Assembly (NCBI GenBank): GCA_001940985.1
Contig: MSHB01000022.1
Coordinates: 35,393-99,392 of the forward strand
Length of the DNA: 64,000 bases
Reading direction: 5' to 3'
DNA from: Mollicutes bacterium Phil14
GTDB lineage: Bacteria; Bacillota_I; Bacilli_A; ML615J-28; CAG-698
Made by a program: the position numbers and the translations under genes. Each line of letters begins with the position of its first letter. Position 1 is the first letter of the stretch. Shown here piece by piece: positions 4,289 to 24,773 of this stretch. The notes beneath the pieces are model-generated. The model was not told where the DNA came from. It made no database searches and saw only the letters and a program-made list of their open reading frames with translations.

Positions 4289-4321
4289 TTTTAAAAAAAG
4301 ATGACCATAAAGGCCATCTAA
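4289..4321 (-). terminator. Rho-independent terminator after the 2549-aa gene.
   Basis: Minus-strand hairpin AGAUGGCC-UUUAU-GGUCAUCU with one mismatch, followed by UUUUUUUAAAAAA. It lies directly 3' of the stop at 4327. Confidence 0.6.
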
Positions 4322-4326
4322 CTAAA

Positions 4327-7300
4327 TTACTTATCCCAACTTATATCTTCATCAGTTAATCCCCAATTTCCACCTGATGTTTTTTCATTAACAACTAAAG
4401 CAAATTCTCTAATACGATTTTTTGTTGAACCACTAATAAAGTGATACTTACCATCATATTTATTATTTAAATCTAAATCATGAAGTTTATAAGAATCGCT
4501 ATTCCATCCATATGTTCCTTTAGAACCCGTCGCAAGATATATATCATATTCATATCTTCTTCCATTAATCAAAGTACCATTACTTTCACCTTTATATTTT
4601 GGAGTAATAGCCGTAAAACCATAGCATCCACTATAATTACGTCCAAACGAATACTGATATTTTGTTGCATCAATAGGATAATAAAACATTGACATTTGAT
4701 TATTCAAACCAGTAATATATTTTGTTATGCCTTCTTTATCAAGTTCACTTGCTTCATATGGATATATAATATGATTAGGATCATTTGGATCAATCGTAAC
4801 AGAATAATCAGCTAAATCACCTTGCAATTGATAATTTTTAATGGTAATAACTACTACTTGATTCTTGATTGGAGAACTAGGATCACTGCCCAATACAATA
4901 TTACCATTAGCAAAACGATAATAAATAGTAAATCTAATAGTTAAATTATATAATATATCGCTAGCAGTAATAAAATAATAAACTGTAGATTCTCCATCTT
5001 CAGAAACAATTTTATAAAGAATAACTGTATCTTTCTCTTCATCGTTACCAATAAAATCACCTTTCAATTCAGTTGACCAATTATTAGTATCACTACCATC
5101 CCAATTACTTCCAGTATATCTATATATACTAGAACCAATAGGATTCGTAAATGAAGGACTATAGTCATCTAAACTAATATTAGTAACTTTTCCATCAATT
5201 CTAAAATACCTAACATTATCATTATCAGCACCATCATAATCAATACCACCATAGTAAGTACGTGCATCATAGAGAGTATTGCTTATTTTATTTCCTAACA
5301 TATCTACTTCATATATATTAGGATATACTAAGGTAGTATCACTATCAAGTTGAAAATCTATATCTTCTAAATAAGCACTTTTACCAAGTAATTTATCTAT
5401 TACAATACTTAGCATTTCTTTTTCTTCACCATCACGAACCAAAATAAATTTATAACCTTTTGACCCTGGCTCTAATAATGAAGTAATATTAACAGAATAA
5501 TATGTTCCTATGTTCAAATAAATCTTAGATTTCATCTCTTCTTCATCAAAAACAATTTCATCAAGCAACATTTTAATTTGTCCATTTAATACTTCTCTGT
5601 CAATTTCAAATCCAAAATCAATATCAAATGTTGTTAGTAAATCCTCACGATAAACTATAAATGTAGTACCATATTGAATGTTATTATTTTTATAGACTAC
5701 TATGTTATCTGGTTCACGTTCAACAATTCTATGAACAATAGTATTAATACTACCTACTTCATTTTCAATTACATATGTCATTACATATTCTCTATTACCA
5801 TTAGTATATGTATAATACACACTTGTTTTAATTAATTTTGAAAATTCAGAAACATATATCCTTTCGATTTCAGTATCATCTATCTTTATTACGTAACTAT
5901 CTACATTATTTAAATATGATATCTCTTCTAGATTATTTATAGTTTCAATAGTTAAATCAATGCTGTTAGTCAAACCATATTTAACTTTAGAAAACATATA
6001 TCCAAATTGAATGTAAGTAATAAAATCTGTATCTTTTTCTTCAAGAAATTCTAAAATATTACCACTTATATCATAACTAAAAGTGTTATAAAAAACATTA
6101 GTAATATTATAATATTGAGATTTTTCTTTTGTTATAAATATAGAATAATCTTCTATTATATTATCATAGTAACGATATCTGATTTCATATTCCCCAGATA
6201 TTAACTTATTACTAAAGGAAATTGTGAAACCGAATTGCCTATTATTAAGTTTTACTATTTCTAATTTATAATAAGCACTATCTATCAAAGTATTTTCTCT
6301 GTATAATCCGATAACAGAAAGTTCATATTCACTTGCCAAAACACCATTATTATCAGTGAATAAACACTCTACTTTTCCATCTGGAGAAACATTATTCTTA
6401 ATAATATAACCATTTGTGATTGAATCCACTATGCTACTAGCACTATCAACAACAGCAGAAAAGTCTACTGATAACTCTTCACTTACACACTCAATAATAA
6501 TCTTATAATCTGTTACATATTTTTCAACTAGACTACTAACATTGCAAGCTATTTCAGAATATACACGTATTTTATCTTCAAATTCTAAACGAGAATTTTT
6601 AGTTAAAGTTCCAGATATACTTGCTTCATATATACCATCTAAAACATTACTACTTCTTAAGTTATAATAATTTCTAAAATCATGGTGTTCATTAGCAGTA
6701 ATACCATATTTAGCAATTACTGCATTTTCACTTAATACTGCACTTTTAACATAATAATTCAAATCAGTCTTATTATTAACAAAATTAAAAGCACTATTAG
6801 AAACAGTAAACGTGATTGTTGGTAAACCATACTCATCACTTCCAACAAGCCCTCCTCTTAAAATCGGAGAATTATTATTTTTATCATATAAAACTAAGTC
6901 ATATAAAGTAGAACCATTATCATCTTTTTGTTGGATCAAAGACTTATCACTATAACTAATTTGAAACATTGATTTATAATCTAATAACATTTCCTCAACG
7001 TTTAAACCACTATCTATTAAATCTTTAGAACTTACATTAGACAAATCAATATATTTTATTTCATCCTTCTCATTTAATTTATACAAATCATCAATTTTAA
7101 GATTTCCTGGTAATACATCACCAGCATCTCGACCTTTGGTTGTTGCTAAAACATACATGCCATTTGGTTTATAATTAAGTGATGTTTCATTTTTAAATCT
7201 ATCTGCTAATACATCATTACTAGCTGCATATATATAATTAGCTTGTTCTGAATCCATCAAAGGAAAACTATCACTGAATATATATGTTTTACTAGTATCA

Positions 7301-10300
7301 CTCTTATCATCGGTTACTATTTCAATTTGATATTGACTAATTGTAGAACTACTACTATTAGAACCAATACTTATATTATTTTGTAATAAACTAGCCACAT
7401 TACTAGGATTAGTTACAGTTGCTCTATTACTGCTATAATTTAAGTTAGATACACTAGTATTACCTGATACAACTACATTTCCATTAATAGTAGTATTTAG
7501 ACTAATAGTTTTATTATCTGAACTTTGTTTTTTTACAGTCCTTTGAACAGTTTCAGTTGCATAATTTGAAGTGTAATTGTTACCATTTATATTTTCGTTG
7601 TATGGTGCATATCTTCTTGTACTTGTAGTTATCTCTTCATATTCAAGTGAATCTAACGTAACTGAAGTAATTCTATACGTGTAGTTATTTCCCCAGAAAC
7701 TTCTTGTAATTGTAATAGATTTTATATCACTATCTGTTAAAGCATTTACTAATTCACTTGTAGTAGTACTTCCTGTAGTATAACCAACAACTAATGCTTG
7801 TGTTGTATCATTACTTCTTGCAGAATAATACGTATCTTCTTTTCCTGTTACTTTTAATCTATAAAATATATAAGCTCCATATGAAGAACCATCCACTCTA
7901 CCAATCATATCAACTTTAGAATCCATATTTAAAATATTCACAAAGTTATTTGATTGCATTACACCACTATTACCTCTTTGTAAACGTCCAAATATTCCTC
8001 CAAAACCACGTCTTGCATTAGGATATAATGACAAACTAACTGATTGGCTTGGAAAAATAAATGTGTTTTCATCTTTATAGATATAACTTGTATCACTTGA
8101 ATTATTCATATAATTGCTATTTGTGATATCTTTTAACACGGTATATGTAAAATTACTATAATTACTGTATTTAGCTGCTTTTACTTTTCCATAATGGATA
8201 GCAGTATCAATATTACAATATGTAATAGTAAGGTTACTTGTGTCTGCACTACCTAATACATATGTAGCTCCTACAATTCCACCAGCAACATCAGTTGAAA
8301 CAATAACTCCATGATTTAACATTCTAGTCATTATACATAATCCATATGATATTACTCCACCACTACAAGCAAAAATTCCTGGTCTACGACCTTGAGAAGT
8401 TCCACTGCCGTTGTTTTGGCCACTAGTAACACGAGTTCCATCTAAATTACCTATCTTATTTGAGATTGCGGTAATATTTCCAAAATTCAATCCATTTGAC
8501 AATTTACAATTAGCTATTCTATCGCCATTACCAACTGTGCACCAAGAAAATTTCTTTTGACCATTATTACTAGAATCAATTGATGCAGTTCCCGCGGTTA
8601 ATTCAACTCCCAAAGCAACAGCTAATATTCCACCACTTCTAACATATTGATTAGCTTTTCCTGATATATTACCATTGTTTGAAGAATCAACTATTTGCGC
8701 AGGCTCTACAACTTCATCACTATAACCAGCTAAAATTGTTGCACTAGTATCGGCCATTGCACTAACAACACCACCAAGTGCAAGTCCACCATTATATGCA
8801 AAAACTAATCCACCATATAAACAATTTGGTGTATCACCACCAGCTACATAAGTAGTACCACTACTTGAATTAATATATGTGATATCACCTGAATTAGCAC
8901 AATCTTGTATAAAGTTATAATTAAAAGTAACTATTCCTCCAACGAACGTATTGCACGTACCAATAATAGTTGCCCCATTACCATCATCAGAAGTTATATC
9001 AGCTCTATTCATAGAATTAGTGATTGAACCAACATTTAAATTAAATAATCCTGCTACATAAAGATTATTAGAATTAATAGTTGCCCTGAAACTAGTACTT
9101 GTTTGTGATGTTCCACTAACACCACTAATAGATGTATTCCCACTAATATTACTAGTTATAATCTTGCCTTCATTAATACAATTTATGGCTTTGTAAGTTT
9201 TATTATTTAAACTTGGTAAAATCCAAGATATCCCTGATATATATATATCTTTATTATTGCAAATTCCATTAACTATAATGTTACCACACATTGATACGTT
9301 TTTATAATCAACTTTATTAGCTAAAGTAATGCCTGCTACTTTCATTTCCCCATTGACGTTATTTTCGCCACCATCAATTGTAATATTACCATTGTTTTGA
9401 CAATACAACAATTCACATTCTTTATCATTAACAGACATAAAAAATGATGAGATATTAATACTTTCCACACTTTCATTAAAAAATGTAGAATCATATGTAT
9501 AAGAAGCTTCATTATAAGCTCTTGATAAAATAATACCATTACCATTATCTAATATTGTTGAACTATAATATATATTTCTGTTGTTATTATAACTATTATA
9601 GTTTTCTATTTCAAAACCAGCATTATTAATCATATAAGAAAAGCTAACTTTACTAATATCTGATGTATTTACTCCAATACCAGCTAAATAGTTTTTAGTA
9701 CTTGCGTTGTATTTACTAACAATAATACCATTATTTTCAAATCTACCGCTAATTAAATCACGATTATTTTTTGATATCTTAATTCCATTATTACTTTTTC
9801 CAAACACGCCACCAACATAAATATTAGCCGAAGCACTATTATCTATGGCTCCATTTATGCTACCATCATTTGTTAAGTAAAAATATTCATTGCTAGTTTC
9901 ACTATTATTATTCATATTACCAATAATGCCACCAGCGCAAATAACTACTTCATTTTCAGTAATGACATTGTTAATTGTTTTTATATTAGCATTGTTATAT
10001 GCATATTCAACTCTTAACCCCTTTTCACTACTTCCACCTATTATTCCACCATAATAATATTCTAAAGATGTATTATAATCTGTATAATTGTGCGTAGCAC
10101 TACCATCAATAGCACCATTAAGATTACAAACATAACTAATGTTACCACTTCCGTAGCCAACTATTCCTCCTATACAAGTTTTTCCTAAACCAGAATTACT
10201 AAAATCAAAATAATTAGTATTCTCATTAACTCTATTAGTAATATTTTTAATATTTCCAGAACTCAAATATGCACTAACTATACCAGCATATATCACTTTT

Positions 10301-11976: not shown

Positions 11977-12680
11977 TCAGTGTCCCAAGGGGTTTTTTCC
12001 AAATCCCAATTATTTTGTGCCCCATCATAATATTGTACTGCTTCGATAATAAATCCAATTTGAAGAAAATATCTACTATCTCTAGTACCAAACATTTTAT
12101 CCGAATAATATTCTTTAATTAAAGGAATTACTAAAGGAGAACTTTCATTAACTCTCTTTACTTTTTCCATACAATAAATAAAGCCATCTTTTTCTCTATT
12201 ATCATAAAATAGGCCACTACTAGATGATTTAAAATTATAATTAAAATCTGTATACCCATCTTGTACAACAGCTAATTCACGAGTAACATCTCCAGTTTTA
12301 TAAAGTAAAGTAAGCTGTTCATATGTAGCAACTCTAAAATATGTATCAACATCACTATATACTTCAACATCAACTCTAAAATTTTCAGCAAAATATATAT
12401 CATCACGAGCAGATATATTAATCTTCACAACTCCAGTTTTAGTAAAATCACTATCTCCTAAATCAGCAGTATAATAAACGGGATCATATATATTACCATC
12501 CTTTTCAAAATAGGTTTTTAATCTTACCTTAACAGTCCCAATGACATACTCTTTATTTTCATTAATTCTACTAGTAATATAAGCAACTGTAGTGCCTACA
12601 AATAGCAAAAAGAATAGTACAATAGCACCAAACATTACTGCCTTTTTAAATCTTAATTTATTTATAATCAAAACAGTCAC
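11970..12680 (-). CDS. Secreted protein with a SipW-cognate-type N-terminus (TasA/camelysin-like paralog).
   Basis: 236 aa. N-terminal basic region, hydrophobic helix, then GTTVAYITS (compare TasA GGGTWAAFND and CalY GGGTFAYFSD). Overlaps the giant gene start. Confidence 0.5.
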   Translation of the reverse strand: MTVLIINKLRFKKAVMFGAIVLFFLLFVGTTVAYITSRINENKEYVIGTVKVRLKTYFEKDGNIYDPVYYTADLGDSDFTKTGVVKINISARDDIYFAENFRVDVEVYSDVDTYFRVATYEQLTLLYKTGDVTRELAVVQDGYTDFNYNFKSSSSGLFYDNREKDGFIYCMEKVKRVNESSPLVIPLIKEYYSDKMFGTRDSRYFLQIGFIIEAVQYYDGAQNNWDLEKTPWDTDW

Positions 12681-12767
12681 TCCTTTCTAAAAACATAAAT
12701 GGGTATTGAAAAAAGCCAATACCCAACCAAACTCTTTAATTAAATAATTGTTAAATAGTATTGAGTA

Positions 12768-13268
12768 TCATTCATCCTTTTGATGTGTTTTTAACAATTT
12801 GTATAATGAATTAAACAAAATCACTAGTACAACAATTATTGCTATTGACAATATAACGAAAGGATTTCTAATAAAATTTATTATAAATCCTAATATAGGA
12901 ATTGAAAAAGCATATATACCTTTTACTTGGCTAGCCTTTATTGGGGCATCATTAGCACTATTTTCATCTATACCTTTAGTTATTATTATATCTTTTTCTT
13001 TATCATAACTAATAACTCGATGAGTAACTGCCTTTCCATCTTCTCTTTCATAAGTTATAATAGTATCATTTTTTATTACGTCATAAACATCACTTTCAGA
13101 AATCTTTTTATAATACATAAGCGAACCTGTATAAATACGTGGTTCCATACTACCTGAAAGTACAATTTTTGCGCGATAATTACATATGTATAATCCTAAA
13201 GAAAATACTATTATAACTGCAAAAAGTCCTATTAATATATATTCAACAATATTTATTACTTTTTTCAT
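12768..13268 (-). CDS. sipW: Signal peptidase I, SipW (ER/archaeal) type.
   Basis: 166 aa. N-terminal TM, catalytic Ser box VLSGSMEP (near-identical to the Bacillus subtilis SipW box), a His box (THRVIS) and a C-terminal TM anchor. Confidence 0.8.
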   Translation of the reverse strand: MKKVINIVEYILIGLFAVIIVFSLGLYICNYRAKIVLSGSMEPRIYTGSLMYYKKISESDVYDVIKNDTIITYEREDGKAVTHRVISYDKEKDIIITKGIDENSANDAPIKASQVKGIYAFSIPILGFIINFIRNPFVILSIAIIVVLVILFNSLYKLLKTHQKDE

Positions 13269-13278
13269 TTTTACTTAT

Positions 13279-13881: not shown

Positions 13882-13892
13882 ATTTTTTCCTC

Positions 13893-14501
13893 CTAAGAAA
13901 TATCTATGGCAAAACCTAATTCATTCCATTCAACATAATCTTTTTGTTTTGCTTGAAAAGCTATTTTTATTATTAATTTTACATTTCTGTTTCCCATATT
14001 ACCATAGTTGTCACCATTAACACTTAAACTTTCTAGTACCGTGATACTTGTGCTTTCAGAACCCTTTATTACACTACCACTAATACTATCGCCATCAATA
14101 ATTCCACCATAATACCAACATCCTTTAAAATAAACCCAATCATCACCAATACTAGCTTTTATTTGTTGATTATTGGTATCATCAAATCCATTCCACTTCT
14201 CATTATCAATTGGACTATTTGCATCAGTAACAAATTGATAAAAAAGTTGAAACCTTATTTCAGAATCCACACTACTATGATTTGTTAGTATATATGGGTC
14301 ATTAATCAATGGTTTTTCAGGAACAATATAATCTTGTTCACATAAATTACCAACCAAATCATAACGAACTTCTCCACTAACAAAAACAATAGAGCTACTT
14401 CTTCTTAAAGAAATAAGCCATGCATATGAAGATGTGGCAAGCGTTATAGCTAAAATGAAAAGTGCTATTATGCTAATCAAACTTTTAGCATTTCTTTTCA
14501 T
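13893..14501 (-). CDS. TasA/camelysin-like secreted protein. It is the first gene downstream of c-di-GMP riboswitch copy A.
   Basis: The ORF track gives 13893..14534, but the first 11 codons would lie inside the riboswitch aptamer. An internal ATG at 14501-14499 is preceded by GGAGGA (MKRNAKSLISII...). N-terminus ...LAITLATSSYAWLISLRR. C-terminal IKIAFQAKQKDYVEWN. Confidence 0.6.
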   Translation of the reverse strand: MKRNAKSLISIIALFILAITLATSSYAWLISLRRSSSIVFVSGEVRYDLVGNLCEQDYIVPEKPLINDPYILTNHSSVDSEIRFQLFYQFVTDANSPIDNEKWNGFDDTNNQQIKASIGDDWVYFKGCWYYGGIIDGDSISGSVIKGSESTSITVLESLSVNGDNYGNMGNRNVKLIIKIAFQAKQKDYVEWNELGFAIDIS

Positions 14502-14502
14502 A

Positions 14503-14600
14503 CAATCCTCCGTTTTCTGGCGACTGGCTGTCATACACTAATTAGCTTCAGACCCTATAGTTTTGCGTCATCACTTTTCAGTGATTTTGCCTTTTTCTTT
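14503..14600 (-). promoter_or_regulatory. c-di-GMP-I (GEMM) riboswitch, copy A.
   Basis: Minus-strand RNA AAGGCAAAAUCACUGAAAAGUGAUGACGCAAAACUAUAGGGUCUGAAGC...GACAGCCAGUCG. It has GGCAAA, a perfect 6-bp hairpin capped by a GAAA tetraloop, then GACGCAAAaCUAUAGGG (receptor-like). This matches the Vc2 pattern GGCAAACCAUUCGAAAGAGUGGGACGCAAAGCC. About 75% identical to copy B at 23141-23215. Confidence 0.8.
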
Positions 14601-15242
14601 TTTTATATCCTCAAGTATTTTTTTCCTGATTTTTTCTCTTTCTGCTTCAATAAATTTTTGTTTTTCTTCATCATTTTTCTTATTTTGACTAGCGATTTTT
14701 TCCTCTTTAACCGCTATAAACATTTTTCCTATTTCAATGATTAAAAGAAAGAAAAACAATAACATTAAAATTAAAAATATTAAACTTCTGTGATTTGCAA
14801 TTAAACCACCAATTTTAAACAGTGTTAAAACCTTAACAACTTTTCCCACATAATTTTCCTTAGTAACAAACTCTGTATCAAAAGTACTATTATTAACACC
14901 TTTCATAATAAACGAACCATCTAAATTAACATCAACAATTCTATGAACTATATATATCTTATTGCTTTTTGAATAATAAATAATATCATCACCAATTGTT
15001 AATTTTTCAAATGGCACTTCTTTTGAAAGAATGAAATCACCTTCATTTATTACAGGTTCCATTGAATCAGTTGGTACAACCGAATATATATAACCAAATA
15101 TTTTTGTAGGTTTGTTGTTTTTATAAGCATTAATTCCAACGATTATTATGGCAATAGCCAAAACAAACAATAAACAAGTAAATATCCCTAAGCATTTGCT
15201 GATGATACTTTTTACTTTAGGTTCTTTCATACTATTCACCAA
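14571..15242 (-). CDS. SipW-type signal peptidase I paralog with a C-terminal TM and a charged tail.
   Basis: 223 aa. N-terminal TM, VVPTDSMEPVINEGDFIL Ser box, IVHRIVDV His box, then a second TM (LIFLILMLLFFFLLII) and a K/E-rich tail. The last about 10 codons overlap the riboswitch A aptamer. Confidence 0.7.
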   Translation of the reverse strand: MVNSMKEPKVKSIISKCLGIFTCLLFVLAIAIIIVGINAYKNNKPTKIFGYIYSVVPTDSMEPVINEGDFILSKEVPFEKLTIGDDIIYYSKSNKIYIVHRIVDVNLDGSFIMKGVNNSTFDTEFVTKENYVGKVVKVLTLFKIGGLIANHRSLIFLILMLLFFFLLIIEIGKMFIAVKEEKIASQNKKNDEEKQKFIEAEREKIRKKILEDIKKEKGKITEK

Positions 15243-16017
15243 TACTATTATCTATTATCAAATTTTTAATAACTAATCTTTGATTAGAATAAAACCTGCC
15301 ATCAAAAGATATATCACTAGGAATAATATCTTGATATATACTAGGAAAAATGGGTTCTGGTTGAAACTTTACTGTAAAATATAGCACTACATTTTTGCCA
15401 GCTTCTAATTTAAAATCTTTTAGTAAATAATAATTAGTTAAATCCTCGCCTTCACTATTAATAGTGTTAAAGTATGTAAATTCAGGACTAATCATACTAT
15501 TAGTTGTAATCTTTTTCCATCCCCATTCCTCAATTTTTTCATCGCTTGGAACAGTGATTAATTCATTTTCTTTTTCTTTTATTTCTGTTTTATACGGAAC
15601 TTCAACAAGCAAATCGCATCTATAACTATATGAATATTGTATCTTTTCATAGGCATTTTGATAATCACTTGTAAAGACTCCATCATTAAATCTTTCAGAA
15701 TGCAAATCAGAAAAATAAACATTTAAATTACAAACATCTTTACTTGTATTAGAAAGTATCAAAAGAAATATATTCATCTCTCCTGGCATCGCTTTTTCAG
15801 CAGTATAAGTATCAGATTGAATAATATTGTTACCTATAACTTGTGAGAACTGATATTCATAACCGTTTTCTCCAACACTAGCCACAAAGCTAGCACTATT
15901 ACTTTTAACAGTTACAAACCAAGCATAACCAACACTAACAAAAGCTATTAAAGATAATATGCATGAAAACAAGGCCATTAAAAACATTTTATTTTTAAAC
16001 ATTTTTCTCATCACCAT
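15232..16017 (-). CDS. TasA/camelysin-like secreted protein (SipW-cognate N-terminus).
   Basis: 261 aa. N-terminus ...LIAFVSVGYAWFVTVKSN. Overlaps neighbours at both ends. Confidence 0.55.
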   Translation of the reverse strand: MVMRKMFKNKMFLMALFSCILSLIAFVSVGYAWFVTVKSNSASFVASVGENGYEYQFSQVIGNNIIQSDTYTAEKAMPGEMNIFLLILSNTSKDVCNLNVYFSDLHSERFNDGVFTSDYQNAYEKIQYSYSYRCDLLVEVPYKTEIKEKENELITVPSDEKIEEWGWKKITTNSMISPEFTYFNTINSEGEDLTNYYLLKDFKLEAGKNVVLYFTVKFQPEPIFPSIYQDIIPSDISFDGRFYSNQRLVIKNLIIDNSIGE

Positions 16018-18010
16018 TTTGGTCCTTATTCATTAGTTTAATTAATTTATCTTTATTTTTGCTTTTTTCTTCGTTAGCTTTTTCAATTTCTTTTTGTTTC
16101 AATTCTTTTCTAACTTTTTCTGTTTGTGAGCGAGATTTTTCTTTTTCTTTCAACTTAAATTCTTTAATTTTTTTATCTTGAATTTCTTTTTGTTTTAATT
16201 TCTTTTCTTTTTTAGCCTTTAAGATTTTATCTAAATTAGCTTTTTCCAAAGCAATAATATCATTAACTTTCTTTGAATGAGCAGCTTGCATTTCTTTAAT
16301 TTTTTGTTTAGTTCTTTCTTTTTCATTTTTACTAATTTCACGCATCTTCTCTTTCAAAGTATCATTTATTAGTTTAAGACTATTCTTTGAGTCTTCCTTA
16401 GCCTTAACAACCTTTATTTTTTTACCATCTAAAGTTACCACACTAGAAGTAGCTTTAGCCTTAGCTTTTTTGTATATATCTATTTCTTTATCTAAATTAT
16501 TCTTAACTTCAAAAATAGCATCTTCATTGGTTTTTCCTTCTAAACTTTTAATAAGTTTAGTACTGGCTTTAGCCATATCTTTATTAAGACGTTTCTCAAG
16601 TCGAATTGCATTGTTATAATCAACTTCTTTTACTTCTCTAATTATCTTAGCAATTTGAGCTTTCTTTTTCGTTTCATCAAACTCTTCTTTAGGATCAACA
16701 TCCTTAACAAGTCTTGTAAATATATCTTCGTCTTCTAATTCAAAATATGATTGATATAAAGCATTAGATATATTATTCACCATGCGAATTGCTTGCTTTA
16801 ATGCAACTTCATCACTTGATGCTGTTTTTTTAAATTCATCTATGTTTTTCTTAAACATATTTTTATATTGTTTTAAATAATATTCATTTATACTATTATC
16901 TTCCTTAGAAAGTACTTCTGGATTAGTGATGATATCATCTTCATTTTTCTTAATCTGTTTAGCACTTTTCTTAATTGTCTTTTCATCACTCTTACCATCA
17001 AACTTTGTCTTTCTAACTGATTCATTAGCCTCACTAGAAAGATAGGCAAGCATTGCTGTTTGATTAAATCCATGTTCTATTTTTTTATCTATTTTTTTGT
17101 TCTTTTCTTTTACTATCAAATCATATGCCAACTTATTATATTTATCTAAAAACAACCACAACATATAGCAATTTTTAAAATCAGGATTTTTCATAATAAT
17201 ATTTGTTTGCATAATTGGAGGATTAACTTTAGGGGCATTAATCAATTTCTTGTATAACTCGGAATTTTTATATGCCATTATCATACGATTTAATTTTTCA
17301 ACACGCTTTAGTAAATATAAATTATTTTTTTCGTTTTGACTATTAACAGTTTTCTTGATTACCACATCAACATTTATATTTACCGAAGCATTGTTAATGT
17401 TAAAGTCAGACGATATATTAACATGATTTTTGTTTGATGATAAAACATTATCTTTAATAACATTGTATCTGTTATTTACAAAAACAAACAATCTATCTAT
17501 CAATGTTTTAATAAATCTATTTTCATAAATTGAGAATTCTTGTTCCGCATAACTTGTTAAAATCTTTTTGGGAATTACGTAATTTCCATCTCTTACTTCT
17601 TTTACAAAATGTGTATGTGAAGCAAGATGTCTTACTGATTCAGAATTAATTTTCTTAGCCTTTTCAACAGGAACTATTTCTTGCTCATATCTGATTCCTG
17701 TTTTAGGAGTGTTTGCAATCTTATCAATACTTGGAAAATATGATTCTAATGTTTTTATCCATTCTTCATCAAAAACTTTTGTTTCAATAATATCTTTTTG
17801 ATATATAACTCTATCACCAGATAAATATGAATCATAGAAAAGTTTGGCAAAAGCACTATCCACTTCTAATTCATCTAAATTAGTAGAAACTGTCTCAAAA
17901 TATTCATCTATATCCAAATCATCTGAATTTAAATCTAAAGGAGTTGCCTCACTTTCTTCTTTTTCTTTTTCGTTAACAAAGATATCGTCCATAGCAACCT
18001 CCTTAAACAA
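15995..18010 (-). CDS. 671-aa acidic, coiled-coil protein. Partner of the adjacent McrB-family NTPase. Function unknown.
   Basis: Acidic N-terminus (DLNSDDLDIDEYFE), a central globular region and an extremely K/E-rich predicted coiled-coil C-terminal half. No signal peptide. It sits 6 nt downstream of the AAA_5 gene. Confidence 0.6.
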   Translation of the reverse strand: MFKEVAMDDIFVNEKEKEESEATPLDLNSDDLDIDEYFETVSTNLDELEVDSAFAKLFYDSYLSGDRVIYQKDIIETKVFDEEWIKTLESYFPSIDKIANTPKTGIRYEQEIVPVEKAKKINSESVRHLASHTHFVKEVRDGNYVIPKKILTSYAEQEFSIYENRFIKTLIDRLFVFVNNRYNVIKDNVLSSNKNHVNISSDFNINNASVNINVDVVIKKTVNSQNEKNNLYLLKRVEKLNRMIMAYKNSELYKKLINAPKVNPPIMQTNIIMKNPDFKNCYMLWLFLDKYNKLAYDLIVKEKNKKIDKKIEHGFNQTAMLAYLSSEANESVRKTKFDGKSDEKTIKKSAKQIKKNEDDIITNPEVLSKEDNSINEYYLKQYKNMFKKNIDEFKKTASSDEVALKQAIRMVNNISNALYQSYFELEDEDIFTRLVKDVDPKEEFDETKKKAQIAKIIREVKEVDYNNAIRLEKRLNKDMAKASTKLIKSLEGKTNEDAIFEVKNNLDKEIDIYKKAKAKATSSVVTLDGKKIKVVKAKEDSKNSLKLINDTLKEKMREISKNEKERTKQKIKEMQAAHSKKVNDIIALEKANLDKILKAKKEKKLKQKEIQDKKIKEFKLKEKEKSRSQTEKVRKELKQKEIEKANEEKSKNKDKLIKLMNKDQNGDEKNV

Positions 18011-18015
18011 AACAA

Positions 18016-19572
18016 TTAGCTATTTTTAATAAAATTTTGAATACAATTAATACTTTCTAAGCAAGTATTTTTACCAAACAATTTGTCAAGTAAAGTAATT
18101 AATTGATTTAATTCTTCATGTAAGAAACTTAAATTTAAAGTTTCAAATTTTCTTATAACTTTATATGCCAAAAAGTAATCTAAACCTTGAACATCAGTTC
18201 CACCACACGCTACATAAACTGGAACAAATGTATTAATTTGTTTCATAATACGATTACCAAAAGTTATCTTAAACTCTTTAGTAATAAATTCATCTAGTTT
18301 TTGAATCTTTTCCACTAATTTCGCATCAAGTGGATATGCTTTTATTCCTTCTTGAAAAAGGTGCTCCATATATTCATAATTCATATTAACATTTTCTGTG
18401 TATGGTGCATCAATTAATTCAGCACGGGCATCCATTTCAATAGTTGTTGCACGATCATAAACTTTATCAGTAATTGTAAATGTTGAATCATCACGGTTAG
18501 CTGTACCAACAAACCAAACATTTTGAGGAATCAATAATTTTCCATCAACTAGTTTCTTAGGATCATTTGCTAAAGTATCTGGAACCAAATCTATTTTCCA
18601 TTCATTCTTATCTGGCATTTCCATTATTGATAAAAACTCAGCAAAATAATACTCAATTCTAGCTAAATTCATTTCATCTAAAATAATGAAATTCATATCA
18701 TCGCGATAGCTAGTTTCATAAACAGCTTTCAAAAAATCAGTTTCATTAAACTTTTTAGTGAATTCATTCAAATATCCAATTAACTCAGTTCTATCTCTCC
18801 ATGAAGGTTGAACAGAACAAATTGCCGCATCGTTTTTAAAAAACTTTCCCATCGCATACGGTAAAGATGTTTTACCAGTACCAGATATACCTTGTAAAAT
18901 CAAAATTTTGCTTGTGGCAAGTCCAGCGAAATATGCTCTAATAACTTTTTTATCATAATACAAATGTAATTGTGACGCTGAAAAATTAATAAATCTATTA
19001 ACTAATTCTTGTAAATTAAGCATATCATCAGGTCCCATCATAATTGATGTAATCTTTGTTTTGTATTCTTCATCAACAGCACTAAGTTTAATAAATCTTA
19101 AATCGCTAACAACTTTTTTGTCTTTAGACATTTCATTAGTAAGATTTTCTTCATCACTTTTTTCAGAATAATTATTCACACCACCAAGACCTAAATTAGA
19201 AACCTTTAATGCTAAAATCTTATTCTTTTCATCAATCAATTCTGCAGTCTTAGTATTTAATTGTGATACTTCTTCTAATAAGTCATCTTTCTCTATTTCT
19301 CTTCTTACAAATCTAACATATCTTCTAAGAATTTGGAAAATTCTCAAACCTAAGAAAATAAAGAAAGCAACTATTATAAGCATTGTAATAATTTCACAAA
19401 TCCAATCAAGAGCATTAAACTCATTACTGCCATTGATTAAATCTTCAAAATAACTAACAATATCTTTAAAAAATGCATGAGAAAATGCCTCCCATAATCT
19501 TACAAAGAACATCTTGAAATTATAGAAAAATGTTCTTAAAAAACCTATGAAATACCTAGCGAAGTTTACCAT
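18016..19572 (-). CDS. Membrane-anchored McrB-family (AAA_5) GTPase/ATPase.
   Basis: 518 aa. N-terminal TM (ITMLIIVAFFIFLGLRIF). Walker A ILQGISGTGKTS. McrB-type Walker B with NxxD region FIILDEMNLARIEYYFAEFL (compare McrB IDEINRANxxxxFGEL). Sensor motif VWFVGTANRDDSTFTITDKVYDRATTIEM (compare McrB IIGTMNTADRS). Confidence 0.7.
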   Translation of the reverse strand: MVNFARYFIGFLRTFFYNFKMFFVRLWEAFSHAFFKDIVSYFEDLINGSNEFNALDWICEIITMLIIVAFFIFLGLRIFQILRRYVRFVRREIEKDDLLEEVSQLNTKTAELIDEKNKILALKVSNLGLGGVNNYSEKSDEENLTNEMSKDKKVVSDLRFIKLSAVDEEYKTKITSIMMGPDDMLNLQELVNRFINFSASQLHLYYDKKVIRAYFAGLATSKILILQGISGTGKTSLPYAMGKFFKNDAAICSVQPSWRDRTELIGYLNEFTKKFNETDFLKAVYETSYRDDMNFIILDEMNLARIEYYFAEFLSIMEMPDKNEWKIDLVPDTLANDPKKLVDGKLLIPQNVWFVGTANRDDSTFTITDKVYDRATTIEMDARAELIDAPYTENVNMNYEYMEHLFQEGIKAYPLDAKLVEKIQKLDEFITKEFKITFGNRIMKQINTFVPVYVACGGTDVQGLDYFLAYKVIRKFETLNLSFLHEELNQLITLLDKLFGKNTCLESINCIQNFIKNS

Positions 19573-19599
19573 AATTTATCCTCTTTCAAGAAGAAATAA

Positions 19600-20391
19600 T
19601 TACTCTTTTATTTCTTCATTTTTTTCTTTTTTTTCCAATTCTGCTAGAAGTTCAGCACGCATCTTTTCTTTTTCATTTTCTAATTCAGCTTTAATGCGAG
19701 CAAGTTCATCTTCATGTTCCTTCATCATTGTTTCTTTATTCTTATGATTTTTAATTCTTAAAAAATTCATTACAAGCATTATTGCTTCAAAAACAAAGAA
19801 CAATGCCGTTGGCAATACTATACAAAGCAAGAATCCATTTGATGTTTGCAAGAACTTCATTGTATTGCCTGCACCAGTCCATTTACCAGTATAAACAGCT
19901 TTAATATCTTCATATGATATAGTTTCAAATTTAGCACTACTTAAGTTATCAGGATCATATTTGTATGCAGGGTTCATAGCATATTTATCACCTTGAGTTC
20001 TTATATATTGCTTACCATCACTACCTGTAGAAAAATCTACAATTCTGTGGGTATTAAGAATTGTTCTTCCTATCTCATCAGAATAATAGGCAAATGTAAC
20101 TATATCTCCAATTTCTAATTTACTAACTATTTTTTCTCTATTTTTTTCAGTTATAACTTTAACAAAGATTAAATCTTTTGGAGTAAATGAATCTTCTTCT
20201 TCTCCATCCATTGACGAAGTTTGAACTGTTAAATATCCTTTACCAAAAATACTTGGAATATCTAATTCAGTCTTCATTCCTAAATTACTAATTGAAAATA
20301 TTAATAATATTGCAACGAATAGATAAAACACACAATTCAATACAACACTAACAACCTCCCACCATTTTTTTTCTTTTTTCTCTTCTAACAT
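19600..20391 (-). CDS. Divergent SipW-type signal peptidase paralog with a C-terminal TM and coiled-coil tail.
   Basis: 263 aa. N-terminal TM, Ser box YLTVQTSSMDGEEED (the SM is retained but the usual EP is replaced by DG plus an acidic insert), His box NTHRIVDF, then a TM and a K/E-rich coiled coil. Confidence 0.6.
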   Translation of the reverse strand: MLEEKKEKKWWEVVSVVLNCVFYLFVAILLIFSISNLGMKTELDIPSIFGKGYLTVQTSSMDGEEEDSFTPKDLIFVKVITEKNREKIVSKLEIGDIVTFAYYSDEIGRTILNTHRIVDFSTGSDGKQYIRTQGDKYAMNPAYKYDPDNLSSAKFETISYEDIKAVYTGKWTGAGNTMKFLQTSNGFLLCIVLPTALFFVFEAIMLVMNFLRIKNHKNKETMMKEHEDELARIKAELENEKEKMRAELLAELEKKEKNEEIKE

Positions 20392-20419
20392 ATTGTCCTC
20401 TTTCTAAAACGAAGTTTTA

Positions 20420-20454
20420 TGTATAACAGAGGCAATTAAATGCTTCTGTTATAC
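20420..20454 (-). promoter_or_regulatory. Intra-operon stem-loop (13-bp stem) between the TasA-like genes and the downstream SipW paralog.
   Basis: Minus-strand GUAUAACAGAAGC-AUUUAAUU-GCCUCUGUUAUAC with one mismatch. No U-tract follows, so it is a candidate partial terminator, attenuator or processing site. Confidence 0.35.
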
Positions 20455-20478
20455 ATATTTAATTTTTAAAATATTTTA

Positions 20479-21381
20479 TTAATTTTCACCTAATGTTAAA
20501 CCTAATTTTACTGATAAAATTTGTTTGTATAATGCGTTAATGCAATCATAATCATATCCTTCAAGCCATACAATTACTGTAACTTTTGTAGCTGTTTTTG
20601 AAACAGTACCTAATTTTATATCAGCAGTTCCATTAATTGCTTGTGTAGTATAATTAGTTGAAGCAGGAATATTTGTACTAGTAATTTCAGTTCTAGCCTT
20701 TAAGTAGCCCATTGCTCCAGTTGTATCAGTGTTTGTTTGTAATCCGGCTGTATTATCATTTTGGCCAGCGCCTTTTTCTAAAATAACAGCAGTATTAGTT
20801 CCTAATTTCACCATAACTCTAGCGGCGTTACTAACTTTAAATTTTTCTGTTGCTGTACCTTGCTTAATATCATCACCAACAGTCTTATCAGGTGTCCAAG
20901 AAGAGTTATTACCAGCACCTTCAGTAATTAAAGAATTTGATAAATCTAAATATAATTCTTCTGTATCTTTAGAAGAATCTTGAGCTAATCTAACAGAAAA
21001 TTCTAATTTTAAAATACCAGCAGTTCCTAATATATCTTTAGCATCAGCTAAAGTTCCAATATCAGTTAATGATGCAGATTTTTTTACTGAATCAATTGCA
21101 AATTTTTTAAATTTGCCGTCATTATATGTAACATCGTTAAATGAAACAAAGTTTGCGCTCTTTAAATTAGTGAAATCATCAGAAGTGATTGAAGTTTTCC
21201 AATTAGTATCATCTATACTTACTTCAATACTTCCATCACCAGCTTTAACGCTACCTTCAAATGGATCTACAGAAGCAGTTCTACTTACTACTAACCATGC
21301 ATAAGTACTTGTTCCTAATGCTATAACTGCAAATGCTACAGCAAGACATGCAATAAATAATTTTCTTGATAATTTTTTCAT
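20479..21381 (-). CDS. TasA/camelysin-like secreted protein.
   Basis: 300 aa. N-terminus ...AVIALGTSTYAWLVVSRTAS. The C-terminal VIVWLEGYDYDCINALY motif is shared with the 329-aa and 232-aa paralogs. Confidence 0.6.
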   Translation of the reverse strand: MKKLSRKLFIACLAVAFAVIALGTSTYAWLVVSRTASVDPFEGSVKAGDGSIEVSIDDTNWKTSITSDDFTNLKSANFVSFNDVTYNDGKFKKFAIDSVKKSASLTDIGTLADAKDILGTAGILKLEFSVRLAQDSSKDTEELYLDLSNSLITEGAGNNSSWTPDKTVGDDIKQGTATEKFKVSNAARVMVKLGTNTAVILEKGAGQNDNTAGLQTNTDTTGAMGYLKARTEITSTNIPASTNYTTQAINGTADIKLGTVSKTATKVTVIVWLEGYDYDCINALYKQILSVKLGLTLGEN

Positions 21382-21411
21382 TTCTCTTTTTTCCTTTCAA
21401 ATTTTTAATCA

Positions 21412-22401
21412 TTAATAAGTTTTTTTAGGGGAATAACTTGAACCCATAAATTTTAATTGAACCATTACATTATCTGCAAATATTGCATTAAAGCAATCTG
21501 CATCCCAACCTTCAAGCCATATGTTAACTTTTACTTTTGCTACGTAACTTGGTGTGCCGTCACTATTTATAACTTTTTGAAACCTTGCACACATTGAATC
21601 ATCAGTTTTTGCCTCATATGGATTTTTAAATGTTGTTAGAGAATACTTGGTGTTTGGATATTCTTTAGGAGGATTAAGAATAGTCAATCTTTTTGAATAA
21701 TACTCAAAAGCTCCTGTTTGTACTCCATAACCCATTTTTTCATTTTCACTCGGATCATAAATAATCGAAAGCAAATCTTCTTTTTCATTAACACCAAACT
21801 CATTTTCCAAATTTTCTTCTATGATTGCAATTCTTATTGCGTTTGCAGCATAGTAAGACCCAATTGAACCCTTTTTTATATCTTCTTCTCCATAAGAGAA
21901 GTCAATATCAGATACCCATTTAACCCCCTTCGACACAACAAATGTACCATCAACTTTTTTTGTTTTTGCAATTTCATATGTTATTTCATGACTAACATTA
22001 TCCACCAAAAACAATTCTTTACTTGTTGGATTATCTGTTTTAAACCATAAATCAAAAGATATATAATTATCTTTAGCATCCTTGATTTCTTCACCTTGTT
22101 TAGTAAAGAATTTCTTTCCATCAAGCGAAGTAACATTATATAACTTCGGATTTTTACCAATGATTTTTTCTAAATCTTCTTGTTTTAAACATTCAGAATA
22201 ATTCTTTCCATCAAGTGATACATAAAAACCCGATTCCGCTATAACATTAAGTTGTGCATCTTCAAGTAGCGCTTCATTACTCAATGTTATCCAAGCAAAT
22301 GTTGCTTGACTAAATGCTAAAAACGAAAACATTACTGCGAAAAGTGAAAAATAAAATTTTCTTGTTATATTTTGAATTATATTATTTTTCATCTTTCTCA
22401 C
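21412..22401 (-). CDS. TasA/camelysin-like secreted protein.
   Basis: 329 aa. N-terminus ...FLAFSQATFAWITLSNE. C-terminal VNIWLEGWDADCFNAIF. Confidence 0.6.
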   Translation of the reverse strand: MRKMKNNIIQNITRKFYFSLFAVMFSFLAFSQATFAWITLSNEALLEDAQLNVIAESGFYVSLDGKNYSECLKQEDLEKIIGKNPKLYNVTSLDGKKFFTKQGEEIKDAKDNYISFDLWFKTDNPTSKELFLVDNVSHEITYEIAKTKKVDGTFVVSKGVKWVSDIDFSYGEEDIKKGSIGSYYAANAIRIAIIEENLENEFGVNEKEDLLSIIYDPSENEKMGYGVQTGAFEYYSKRLTILNPPKEYPNTKYSLTTFKNPYEAKTDDSMCARFQKVINSDGTPSYVAKVKVNIWLEGWDADCFNAIFADNVMVQLKFMGSSYSPKKTY

Positions 22402-23080
22402 CAGAATCGATTGCTGAGAATTTCATTTGAATCTTAATCTGACCACCTAATATATCACTTGTTGTATCAGGATCTTGACCTTCTAGCCACATAAATACTG
22501 TATATTTTATTACTTGGTCAGGAAAGAAACCATAAATCTTATCACGCATTATCAATCTTTCATTAACAAATTCTAAACAATCAGGGATATCTTCATACTG
22601 TGCTTCTTTATCATCTTTTGCCATAAATAACATTTCTCGAGAGACACCATCAATTTCTGTAATCACCATAAACCTTATTGCTTTATCAACATTTTTCTTA
22701 ACAGAAGTTATTTGAACATAATAACGCAAATCCGTTGACTGACTACCAAAATTTTTAACATAGAAAGTATATGCCAAATATTTAAAATTTGGATCATTAT
22801 AACTTCCTTCTGCTTTCTTAGCTTCTTCAATATTTAGCATCGTGTATGTTATATCTCTAGCATCGTAAACCGCATCAGCTTGTATTAAAGAGCTAGGATT
22901 AATAAAATCTTTAGTCTGTGACATATATATTTGTTTTTCTTTTAAGTCAGGATCAATTGACATAACAAAATTACCAACATTAGATCCATAAAATGTTAAT
23001 ACTGCAATTATAACTAGTGCTATTCCAAAAACAGTTATTCCCATTTGAAGAAACTTTTTATTCTTAAAAAATGCATTCAT
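22382..23080 (-). CDS. Secreted or anchored protein of the same paralog family (shared C-terminal motif). It is the first gene downstream of riboswitch copy B.
   Basis: 232 aa. N-terminal TM. C-terminal YTVFMWLEGQDPDTTSDILGGQIKIQMKF aligns with the IWLEGWDxDC motif of the 300- and 329-aa paralogs. GAGGTGGTGAG ribosome-binding site. Confidence 0.5.
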   Translation of the reverse strand: MNAFFKNKKFLQMGITVFGIALVIIAVLTFYGSNVGNFVMSIDPDLKEKQIYMSQTKDFINPSSLIQADAVYDARDITYTMLNIEEAKKAEGSYNDPNFKYLAYTFYVKNFGSQSTDLRYYVQITSVKKNVDKAIRFMVITEIDGVSREMLFMAKDDKEAQYEDIPDCLEFVNERLIMRDKIYGFFPDQVIKYTVFMWLEGQDPDTTSDILGGQIKIQMKFSAIDSGEKDEK

Positions 23081-23087
23081 TATGTCT

Positions 23088-23217
23088 CACCACCTCACTT
23101 GAAACAAAAAAGCCAGAAATCTCCACAAAAAATTTGAGATAACTGGCTACCATTTCAGGCCCTATAGCTTTGCGTCACAACCTTTCGATTGCTTTGCCTT
23201 TAACATATACGCTTATT
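23088..23217 (-). promoter_or_regulatory. c-di-GMP-I (GEMM) riboswitch, copy B, with a terminator-type expression platform.
   Basis: Minus-strand aptamer AAAGGCAAAGCAAUCGAAAGGUUGUGACGCAAAGCUAUAGGGCCUGAAAUGGUAGCCAGUU. It contains GGCAAA, a hairpin with a GAAA loop and GACGCAAAGCUAUAGGG. Then comes the hairpin GCCAGUUAUCUC...GGAGAUUUCUGGC followed by UUUUUUGUUU. The terminator's 5' arm overlaps the aptamer's 3' end. Confidence 0.85.
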
Positions 23218-23243
23218 ATACTATGTTTTGGGCTATTTGTCAA
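23215..23243 (-). promoter_or_regulatory. Near-consensus sigma-A promoter (TTGACA, 17 nt, TATAAT) driving riboswitch B and its operon.
   Basis: Minus-strand TTGACAaatagcccaaaacatagTATAAT. The riboswitch GGCAAAG begins about 16 nt after the -10 element. Confidence 0.7.
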
Positions 23244-24753: not shown

Positions 24754-24773
24754 AACTTTTCTCCTTTTTGTAA

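Follow-up and report, generated by a model that had tools for sequence, protein, structure and literature searches.

A large clade of McrB GTPases that carry an NxD motif and are fused to an FtsB-like domain, consisting of a transmembrane (TM) segment and a coiled coil, was described by Bell et al. (eLife 2024; PMC11090510), who also noted coiled coils on both the McrB and the McrC homologues and an association with genes of the signal peptidase family. The clade was named CoCoPALM and placed beside the CoCoNuTs in a single paragraph, the analysis being deferred to a later paper; as given in the passages devoted to it, the description includes no substrates, regulation or experiments. Here we analyze a cluster of ~19 kb in a stretch of 64,000 nucleotides (nt) from Mollicutes bacterium Phil14 (contig MSHB01000022.1, positions 35,393 to 99,392 of the forward strand; hereinafter, the window). 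The cluster encodes a membrane-anchored McrB-like GTPase of 518 amino acids (aa), a McrC homologue, three SipW-type signal peptidases, seven small, predicted exported proteins and a giant protein of 2549 aa, and contains two riboswitches of the cyclic di-GMP (c-di-GMP)-I class. We assign it with high confidence to the CoCoPALM type, judging by the features that are stated in the text of Bell et al.

Another described system that the locus resembles is the tapA-sipW-tasA operon of Bacillus subtilis and its counterpart in Bacillus cereus, sipW-tasA-calY. In both cases, the gene for a dedicated endoplasmic reticulum (ER)-type signal peptidase adjoins those for its own exported substrates; these contain a hydrophobic region (h-region) and, after it, a small-x-A-aromatic motif; the major subunits are accompanied by a minor anchor or initiator (a proposed one in our locus); and the output is, or is predicted to be, biofilm or adhesion. 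In B. subtilis, the operon is under the control of the protein regulators SinR/SlrR. The locus in the window differs in its c-di-GMP riboswitch control, in the substrates, which have no Peptidase_M73/TasA match and yield generic β-sandwich predictions, in the presence of two or three peptidases, two of which end in long, charged tails on the cytoplasmic side, and in the McrBC-derived GTPase pair that is interleaved with the other genes.

With McrBC and the CoCoNuTs, the locus shares an AAA+ GTPase core that aligns to Escherichia coli McrB and a partner with the N-terminal McrC domain DUF2357, which, according to Bell et al., activates the McrB hexamer (PMC11090510). It differs from these systems by the NxD motif in place of NxxD, by the TM anchor in place of a DNA-reading N-terminal domain, by the lack of a PD-(D/E)xK or other nuclease, and by its chromosomally fixed, not island-like, location. 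In the B. cereus group, the c-di-GMP-I riboswitch Bc2 is located upstream of cap and Bc3-5 form a triple tandem (PMC4933901, PMC4759541). Class I aptamers before a large surface adhesin, and tandem aptamers in related loci, are points of likeness, but a single collagen-adhesion protein is controlled in that group, whereas here the target is a multigene cluster, presumably for assembly, with a second, internal aptamer. The similarity to the archaeal bundling pili (AbpA/AbpB) and the Sulfolobus threads is low and not specific, and the operons for these structures contain no conserved dedicated peptidase or McrBC-type GTPase.

The sequence-only reading of the window, made before any database search, had considered the apparatus undescribed. 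The combination of McrB, McrC and signal peptidase already has a name, CoCoPALM, even if it was never characterized, so that the cluster is less novel as a category and yet more general than had been thought. The text passages on CoCoPALM (PMC11090510) do not mention the exported protein families, the motif-less paralog encoded by the first gene, the tailed peptidases, the link to riboswitches and GGDEF-EAL proteins, or the Acholeplasma adhesin module, all of which are discussed below. Our literature search, which did not extend to subscription-only papers, found no later CoCoPALM paper and none tying SipW or TasA to c-di-GMP riboswitches or to Acholeplasma. Relative to the literature found, the new parts are the control by c-di-GMP, the families of substrates and the peptidases with tails.

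A membrane-anchored McrB-like GTPase and its McrC-like partner

The 518-aa protein aligns to E. coli McrB (PDB 6hz4, E 4.4e-5), and its best library match is the PADLOC defense candidate PDC-M26A (7e-38); the match to Pfam AAA_5 is weak (E 0.025), this family being recognized in 14 of 16 relatives. The Walker A and B motifs are intact, and all of 16 diverse relatives share the two defining residues of the NxD motif (GTANRDDS), N359 and D361. The single TM segment (residues 58-76) is followed by a basic stretch and then by a helical, heptad-like segment; the succession of a TM segment and a basic stretch implies that the GTPase domain should be cytoplasmic. These matches, together with the TM segment, bear out the membrane-anchored McrB-family NTPase that had been predicted from the sequence alone. 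The Pfam DivIC/FtsB model does not match the protein and recognizes only one of the 16 relatives, weakly (DivIC, E 0.012).

The 671-aa protein contains DUF2357 (3.3e-10), which was also identified in 33 of its 44 relatives. No nuclease family was detected in this protein or in any of the 44 relatives, and a search against PDB gave no match. From residue 300 on, that is, over the C-terminal ~370 aa, the fraction of charged residues is 0.42-0.66, a composition that suggests a coiled coil. The sequence-only reading had described this protein simply as a coiled-coil protein; the long, charged, coiled-coil-like extension is there, but the protein is a nuclease-less McrC homologue. Given this partner, the GTPase appears as the NTPase half of an McrBC-derived pair and not as a lone embedded motor.

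The likeness to CoCoPALM thus comprises an NxD McrB-like GTPase with an N-terminal TM and helical segment, a DUF2357-containing McrC homologue with a long extension, and adjacent signal peptidases, and it is the combination of the NxD motif, the TM anchor, the nuclease-less partner and the flanking peptidases that leads us to file the core of the locus in this clade. Neither the endonuclease of McrC nor the DNA-recognition N-terminal domain of McrB, which characterize McrBC Type IV systems, was found in the 671-aa and 518-aa proteins. The same GTPase architecture also occurs in a different context: a TM-anchored homologue with 35% identity (locus L006, 4623-8267) is located beside a phage holin and lysin module, with partners of 384 aa and 324 aa and with no SipW or WLEG (see below) genes in the locus.

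Conservation and distribution of the cluster

A scan of one genome per GTDB species detected at least 598 stretches that encode a relative of the GTPase, and iterated hidden Markov models were applied to the top 80 loci for a census of gene content; 39 of the loci, in which the GTPase gene is flanked by 4 kb or more on each side, constitute the well-flanked set. The named relatives with 57-68% identity to the GTPase come from Acholeplasma laidlawii, A. hippikon, Peloplasma and Acholeplasmataceae or "Bacilli" metagenome-assembled genomes (MAGs), the protein being ~60% identical across the Acholeplasmataceae. The top 80 loci belong to Acholeplasmataceae, Anaeroplasma, Izemoplasmatales, Erysipelotrichaceae, Ruminococcus, Lachnospiraceae, Oscillospiraceae, Christensenellaceae and other Clostridia. 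More distant, TM-less relatives of the GTPase are numerous, with 8323 representatives at E < 1e-3.

The recurring gene order is a 232-like gene (a homologue of the first gene of the cluster, encoding 232 aa), one to five genes of the WLEG family, a SipW gene of the 263-aa type, the TM-anchored McrB-like gene, the McrC-like gene and a SipW gene of the 223-aa type. In the well-flanked set, a SipW gene is present within 5 kb of the GTPase gene in all 39 loci, the McrC-like gene follows in 35 of the 39, and 33 have a 232-like gene on the same strand at most 5 kb upstream. The full order of 13 genes, together with the two GGDEF-EAL genes upstream, is retained in A. laidlawii and A. hippikon, and the distal module (small family, sipW-166 and giant gene) is mainly confined to Acholeplasma-like loci. 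The level of GTPase identity in the family, the flat GC content (~0.27 across the window) and the housekeeping genes tilS-hpt-ftsH upstream of the cluster suggest that it is a native gene set.

Signal peptidases and predicted exported proteins

Two of the three peptidases, of 166 aa and 223 aa, score 78.9 and 81.4 bits with TIGR02228, above the cut-off of 51.85 bits. The 263-aa peptidase is divergent and stays below it (33.8 bits, E 2.7e-8; SipW_Bacil, E 2.4e-10), and none of the three reaches the Bacillus SipW equivalog cut-off of 190. The catalytic motifs are retained in all three, with the serine in SMEP, SMEP and SMDG and the histidine in HRV, HRI and HRI, in agreement with the earlier assignment to the SipW/ER type; from these sequences, all three are probably active. 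A long charged tail after the last TM segment is specific to the two core types of peptidase: the tails of the 263-type have a median length of 57 aa and reach 30 aa or more in 71 of 72 relatives, and those of the 223-type have a median of 47 aa and reach this length in 36 of 39, compared with a median of 20 aa, and no long charged tail, in the distal sipW-166 type. With the usual SipW topology, the tails would be cytoplasmic, on the same side of the membrane as the GTPase and the charged extension of the McrC-like protein. The threefold peptidase and sevenfold substrate redundancy had seemed special to this locus; two tailed SipW genes and several substrates are in fact the norm of the family.

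The seven small proteins fall into two families, which we denote WLEG (232, 329 and 300 aa) and small (261, 202, 200 and 236 aa). Only the first ~55 residues, comprising the signal peptide, the TxA(W/Y)(F/L) motif and the next strand, are common to the two (hhalign probability 96.9%, E 1.6e-10). An h-region followed by this motif is nearly universal in both families: W29 and A28 vary little or not at all among 69 WLEG-family proteins, and 40 small-family proteins have the consensus YAWFT. Thus, the shared, SipW-cognate-like N-terminal signal that had been noticed in all of the small proteins is real, except that it is missing in the 232-aa protein, where YG..GNFV follows the TM segment in place of a cleavage-type motif. 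This protein is nevertheless a full-length WLEG homologue (hhalign probability 98.6%, E 8e-16, 206 columns), and we propose that it is an uncleaved membrane anchor or initiator subunit; the 300-aa protein is a candidate for the major subunit. Type IV pilin-like signals were considered and ruled out because the conserved motif comes after, not before, the hydrophobic segment.

The label "TasA/camelysin-like", under which these proteins were first read, could not be upheld. Peptidase_M73 gave no match at E <= 0.1 for the seven window proteins and none at E <= 0.01 for the 69 WLEG-family proteins scanned singly. The 34-position model of the SipW-cognate signal, TIGR04088 (cut-off 19 bits), is exceeded by one of the seven, the 200-aa protein (20.2 bits), and matches six of the 40 small-family relatives at E <= 0.1, with one match to TIGR04089; the Peptidase_M73 and NCBIfam TasA models, applied to the seven proteins and the 69 and 40 relatives, yielded nothing beyond such marginal signal matches. 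No TasA, camelysin or pilin chain was found among PDB sequences with profiles of the WLEG, small and 232-like families. The 329-aa protein matches no Pfam or NCBIfam family. The predicted folds are generic β-sandwiches, and the structural neighbors of these models are mostly pilins, adhesins and biofilm scaffold proteins. Judging by sequence, the seven proteins are not demonstrable TasA homologues.

The giant protein contains no known domain and has no Pfam or PDB match. Orthologues of ~2450-2480 aa are encoded in A. laidlawii and A. hippikon. Its N-terminal hydrophobic segment supports the view of the sequence-only reading that this is a surface protein, N-terminally anchored or secreted, and the protein is a putative adhesin.

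Predicted control by c-di-GMP

Both riboswitches noticed in the sequence are recognized by the Rfam model of the c-di-GMP-I class (RF01051), with 70.5 bits for riboswitch A and 62.6 bits for riboswitch B against a gathering score of 35. In riboswitch B, the aptamer is followed by a hairpin and a U-run, and the 5' arm of this hairpin, AGCCAGUUAUCUC, doubles as the 3' strand of the aptamer, a design that implies an ON switch. Unlike riboswitch B, riboswitch A has no terminator of its own. Its P1 helix shares sequence with the end of sipW-223 (the last codons and the stop), and its 3' side abuts GGAGG and the ATG at 14501. A model in which riboswitch A sequesters the Shine-Dalgarno sequence is not supported, the putative helix being no better than in shuffled sequence. 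As an observation in its own right, the 5' part of riboswitch A, including the P1 stem (14571-14601, minus strand), is coding sequence of sipW-223, such that the C-terminal peptide ...KGKITEK of the peptidase is encoded by the aptamer, an unusual overlap.

A covariance model built from four aptamers and run on 1.25 Mb of related loci gave 57 strong matches, all 57 on the same strand as the cluster, and by gene order the aptamers are located directly 5' of the 232-like first gene in ~29 loci. A hairpin with a U-run follows in 53 of the 57, and in 51 of these the hairpin starts inside the 3' end of the aptamer; in most of the 51, the AGCCAGUUG strand of the aptamer itself serves as the 5' arm, as one would expect for an ON switch. 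The aptamer 5' of the cluster is kept at the same position in A. laidlawii and A. hippikon, where no riboswitch other than this upstream one is present. Rfam independently confirms aptamers in seven loci of Clostridia and Erysipelotrichaceae, one of the seven being typed as the GGC variant. Two or three tandem aptamers, each with its own terminator, are present in loci L008 (122-445), L062 (6127-6456), L046, L011, L023, L078, L042, L015 and L020 and resemble the triple-tandem Bc3-5 of Bacillus thuringiensis. An internal aptamer after the second SipW gene, like riboswitch A, was found in nine loci (L009, L011, L015, L016, L020, L022, L023, L046 and L062).

Some of the related loci deviate from this pattern. 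In a Christensenellaceae MAG (L045, 8142-8216, plus strand), the aptamer is typed as c-di-GMP-I-GGC (RF03167, 59.3 bits against 59) and may differ from the standard class I in ligand specificity. One or two additional c-di-GMP-I aptamers lie 3' of the giant gene, ahead of a second 232-like gene, in L017 (20899-21111) and L021 (12399-12483), so that some genomes may contain a second, adjacent unit. A lysine riboswitch (100.2 bits; L055, 281-450, minus strand) near the cluster of an Erysipelotrichaceae MAG is probably unrelated.

Genes for GGDEF or EAL proteins flank 37 of 83 loci. Ruminococcus-type loci have no riboswitch; immediately 5' of the 232-like gene, they encode a stand-alone EAL protein of ~255-290 aa (Pfam EAL, 1e-25 to 1e-33; L051 7777-8541, L076 7383-8141, L087 7406-8284 and other loci of this type), which may provide a protein-level c-di-GMP input in place of the RNA one. 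The two proteins encoded directly upstream of the cluster in the window, of 490 and 857 aa, are syntenic in Acholeplasma and have intact EAL motifs with a degenerate or absent GGDEF, and hence are probable phosphodiesterases; the 373-aa protein encoded downstream is a probable diguanylate cyclase. Taken together, the architecture of these elements makes it likely that the entire locus is under positive c-di-GMP control, that is, that c-di-GMP induces it. Such control appears to run family-wide and was not previously reported in the literature found.

Organization of the locus and its neighborhood

The 13 minus-strand open reading frames (ORFs) of the cluster tile the segment from 23080 to 4327 with overlaps or short gaps (Table 1), and all of them lie at the coordinates given in the sequence-only reading. 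The overlapping or near-abutting frames indicate co-translation. Two operons had been postulated; considering that riboswitch A has neither a promoter nor a terminator of its own and that its P1 helix overlaps the sipW-223 stop codon, a single transcription unit with an internal riboswitch is more likely. For the 202-aa protein, the start already preferred in that reading, the ATG that follows GGAGG, is retained because the alternative 213-aa ORF overlaps riboswitch A. Of the two additional hairpins in the cluster, the one 3' of the 300-aa gene is a possible partial terminator or mRNA stabilizer, and the one that follows sipW-166 is a possible attenuator of the distal genes.

Table 1. Features of the CoCoPALM-type cluster and adjacent c-di-GMP-related genes (window coordinates; all on the minus strand)
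Feature	Coordinates	Strand	Characteristics
Two membrane GGDEF-EAL proteins, 490 and 857 aa, directly 5' of cluster	23281..27347	-	
Sigma-70-type promoter, TTGACA-17-TATAAT	23215..23243	-	12/12 consensus matches; 7 nt 5' of riboswitch B
Riboswitch B aptamer, c-di-GMP-I, head of entire locus	23135..23208	-	RF01051, 62.6 bits, E 7.4e-10
Intrinsic terminator (riboswitch B expression platform)	23110..23148	-	Hairpin in minimum free energy fold; -15 kcal/mol
First gene, WLEG-family paralog, 232 aa	22382..23080	-	N-terminal TM; no TxAWF cleavage motif
WLEG-family exported protein, 329 aa	21412..22401	-	Signal ...ATFAWITL; C-terminal VNIWLEGWDADC
WLEG-family exported protein, 300 aa	20479..21381	-	Signal ...GTSTYAWLVV; C-terminal VIVWLEGYDYDC
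Perfect 17-bp stem-loop in gap 3' of 300-aa gene	20418..20457	-	No U-run directly after on minus strand
SipW-type signal peptidase, 263 aa	19600..20391	-	56-aa K/E-rich tail after second TM segment
Membrane-anchored McrB-like GTPase, NxD clade, 518 aa	18016..19572	-	TM 58-76; Walker A GISGTGKTS; Walker B ILDEMN; NxD N359-R-D361
McrC homologue, 671 aa	15995..18010	-	DUF2357 core ~93-179; K/E-rich C-terminal half
Small-family exported protein, 261 aa	15232..16017	-	Signal ...VSVGYAWFVT
SipW-type signal peptidase, 223 aa	14571..15242	-	51-aa K/E-rich C-terminal tail
Riboswitch A aptamer, c-di-GMP-I, internal	14516..14601	-	RF01051, 70.5 bits, E 8.6e-12
Small-family exported protein, 202 aa	13893..14501	-	Signal ...TSSYAWLIS; C-terminal IAFQAKQKDYVEW
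Small-family exported protein, 200 aa	13279..13881	-	Sole one above SipW-cognate signal model cut-off
Short canonical SipW-type signal peptidase, 166 aa	12768..13268	-	11-aa tail
Terminator-like hairpin and U-run between sipW-166 and 236-aa gene	12700..12725	-	
Small-family protein, 236 aa	11970..12680	-	Signal ...GTTVAYITS; 3' end overlaps giant-gene start by 7 nt
Giant protein, 2549 aa	4327..11976	-	One N-terminal hydrophobic segment, 16-34; ten GG(I/V/L)xG motifs
Intrinsic terminator at locus end	4299..4319	-	
373-aa protein with intact GGDEF motif, 3 kb downstream of locus	215..1336	-	

Over the whole window, the minus strand carries 43 of the 44 ORFs that are 150 aa or longer, and the GC skew is negative throughout (-0.22 to -0.37), which fits a single replichore of a low-GC Firmicute or Mollicute genome. 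A T-box leader (RF00230, 104.8 bits; 58739-58952, minus strand) is located 5' of ORFs 57679-58701 (340 aa) and 55276-57669 (797 aa), the sizes of which suggest what we take to be an aminoacyl-tRNA synthetase pair such as pheS/pheT. A D-Ala-D-Ala ligase and a Mur-ligase-domain protein are encoded at 33918-35018 and 35153-36694 (minus strand). Acholeplasma, the genus to which named relatives belong, is wall-less; considering these two genes, the absence of peptidoglycan precursors cannot simply be assumed for the host.

A tentative model of the apparatus and alternative explanations

On balance, we favor, with some confidence, the interpretation of the locus as a c-di-GMP-induced surface fiber or adhesion apparatus, the peptidases of which are coupled to a cytoplasmic GTPase. 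The overall prediction of a c-di-GMP-inducible surface or adhesion apparatus had been made before the census and agrees with the ON-type architecture of 51 of the 57 related aptamers. That the cluster builds a fiber or matrix we consider slightly more probable than the opposite; a coupling of GTPase and peptidases through the charged tails is a tentative suggestion.

Under the proposed scheme, binding of c-di-GMP to riboswitch B would prevent termination and let transcription enter the cluster, the second aptamer standing just before the distal module. The exported proteins would enter the membrane via Sec, be held there by their signal anchors, and be cut by the dedicated peptidases after TxA. 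The N-terminal strand freed in this manner could then drive polymerization or packing into a surface fiber or matrix, as in TasA and the archaeal bundling pilin AbpA, with the motif-less 232-aa paralog remaining in the membrane as a base or initiator and the giant protein serving as an adhesin. On the cytoplasmic face, the McrB hexamer and McrC would contact the ~50-aa charged tails of the two core peptidases, and GTP hydrolysis might gate or power processing and assembly. In its most general form, which we put forward only as a speculation, the proposal is that CoCoPALM represents a new class of surface-filament machinery in Bacillota and Acholeplasma-like relatives, with a McrB/McrC GTPase of restriction origin exapted as a motor or gate that is cytoplasmic and tethered to the membrane, coiled-coil contacts to two SipW tails, cleavage of signal anchors, and ordered donor-strand polymerization of pilin-like WLEG proteins on an uncleaved anchor, licensed by ON riboswitches or an EAL receptor.

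Several points weigh against this interpretation. The filament, the cleavage and the c-di-GMP response are all predicted, as is everything beyond the gene content. TasA-type fibers need no NTPase, which makes the role given to McrB/McrC speculative, and, the substrates not being demonstrable TasA homologues, donor-strand polymerization rests on analogy. Riboswitch A lacks a terminator, and its putative sequestering helix (-6.5 kcal/mol) has a z-score of -0.3 against shuffled sequence. The prediction otherwise made for the McrB clade is a role in defense, as the PADLOC match indicates, and a TM-less distant relative (P0177) adjoins helicase-like genes in a 17-kb contig that contains neither SipW nor substrate genes.

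The strongest competitor, which we regard as appreciably less probable than a fiber or adhesion apparatus, is a c-di-GMP-induced coat or matrix instead of a pilus, in which the β-sandwich proteins form a non-filamentous layer or hydrogel-like matrix and the McrBC-like pair only regulates the peptidases or membrane organization. The RbmA-like fold of the structural models and the fast drift of the substrates would suit such a material. However, conservation between the two substrate families is limited to the N-terminal segment that directly follows the predicted cleavage site, a pattern that donor-strand polymers would require, and the presence of a single motif-less paralog 5' of the GTPase gene in 33 of the 39 well-flanked loci suits a polymer anchor or initiator.

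A role in anti-phage defense appears unlikely. Under this hypothesis, the locus is a CoCoNuT-like derivative of Type IV restriction, in which the McrB/McrC GTPase detects infection and the exported or membrane proteins function as abortive-infection effectors or as a coat that masks phage receptors. The McrBC ancestry of the GTPase and its partner, with the PADLOC profile as the best library match, the neighborhood of the TM-less relative P0177, and the placement of the clade next to the CoCoNuTs in the text of Bell et al. (PMC11090510) are all compatible with defense. Nevertheless, neither the McrC homologue nor any of its 44 relatives contains a nuclease domain, and the GTPase has a TM anchor instead of a nucleic-acid-binding N-terminal domain. 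Furthermore, the fixed chromosomal position, flat GC content and ~60% identity across the family are unlike mobile defense islands, and c-di-GMP ON riboswitches with GGDEF/EAL genes are typical of adhesion and biofilm functions.

Even less credible is a device for cell division or envelope remodeling, in which the GTPase would be linked to the divisome by its N-terminus, with an FtsB-like TM segment and coiled coil, and the exported proteins would be septal or envelope parts. The FtsB homology of the N-terminal domain is stated for the clade in the passage of Bell et al. (PMC11090510), and the lone weak DivIC match among the 16 relatives points the same way, but no FtsB similarity is detectable in the window protein, the distribution of the cluster is patchy rather than universal, and ON control, a giant adhesin-like protein and fast-evolving exported paralogs are unsuited to a core division function. 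Finally, a chance juxtaposition, with an McrBC-like defense cassette inserted into an ordinary sipW-tasA-type operon without any functional link, would be conceivable given the mobility of McrBC modules and the unrelated ancestry of the two gene sets, but is effectively refuted by the synteny census, in which the order SipW, McrB-like, McrC-like, SipW recurs in Acholeplasmatales, Erysipelotrichaceae, Ruminococcus, Lachnospiraceae and Christensenellaceae, SipW is found near the GTPase in every well-flanked locus and the TM-anchored N-terminus co-varies with this context, and by the overlapping or near-abutting frames.

Implications

If the proposed surface fiber or adhesion apparatus is real, a GTPase module known only from restriction of DNA and RNA would have been recruited to build a cell-surface structure, and a fourth solution of energy coupling in pilus or fiber assembly would stand beside type IV ATPases, chaperone-usher systems and sortase. 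The census supplies starting points beyond the 2024 paper in which CoCoPALM was named, namely the substrate families, the cleavage motif, the tailed peptidases and the ON-switch design. It also makes c-di-GMP signaling in the Acholeplasma lineage testable, through a defined riboswitch-controlled output with adjacent genes for probable phosphodiesterases and a probable cyclase; A. laidlawii is a described species with a complete genome assembly and a complete locus. The cluster is common in gut and rumen Clostridia, Erysipelotrichaceae and Acholeplasma-like bacteria, and, with a GTPase relative encoded in at least 598 stretches, it could be a major, unstudied route of c-di-GMP-dependent adhesion or biofilm formation in anaerobic Firmicutes.

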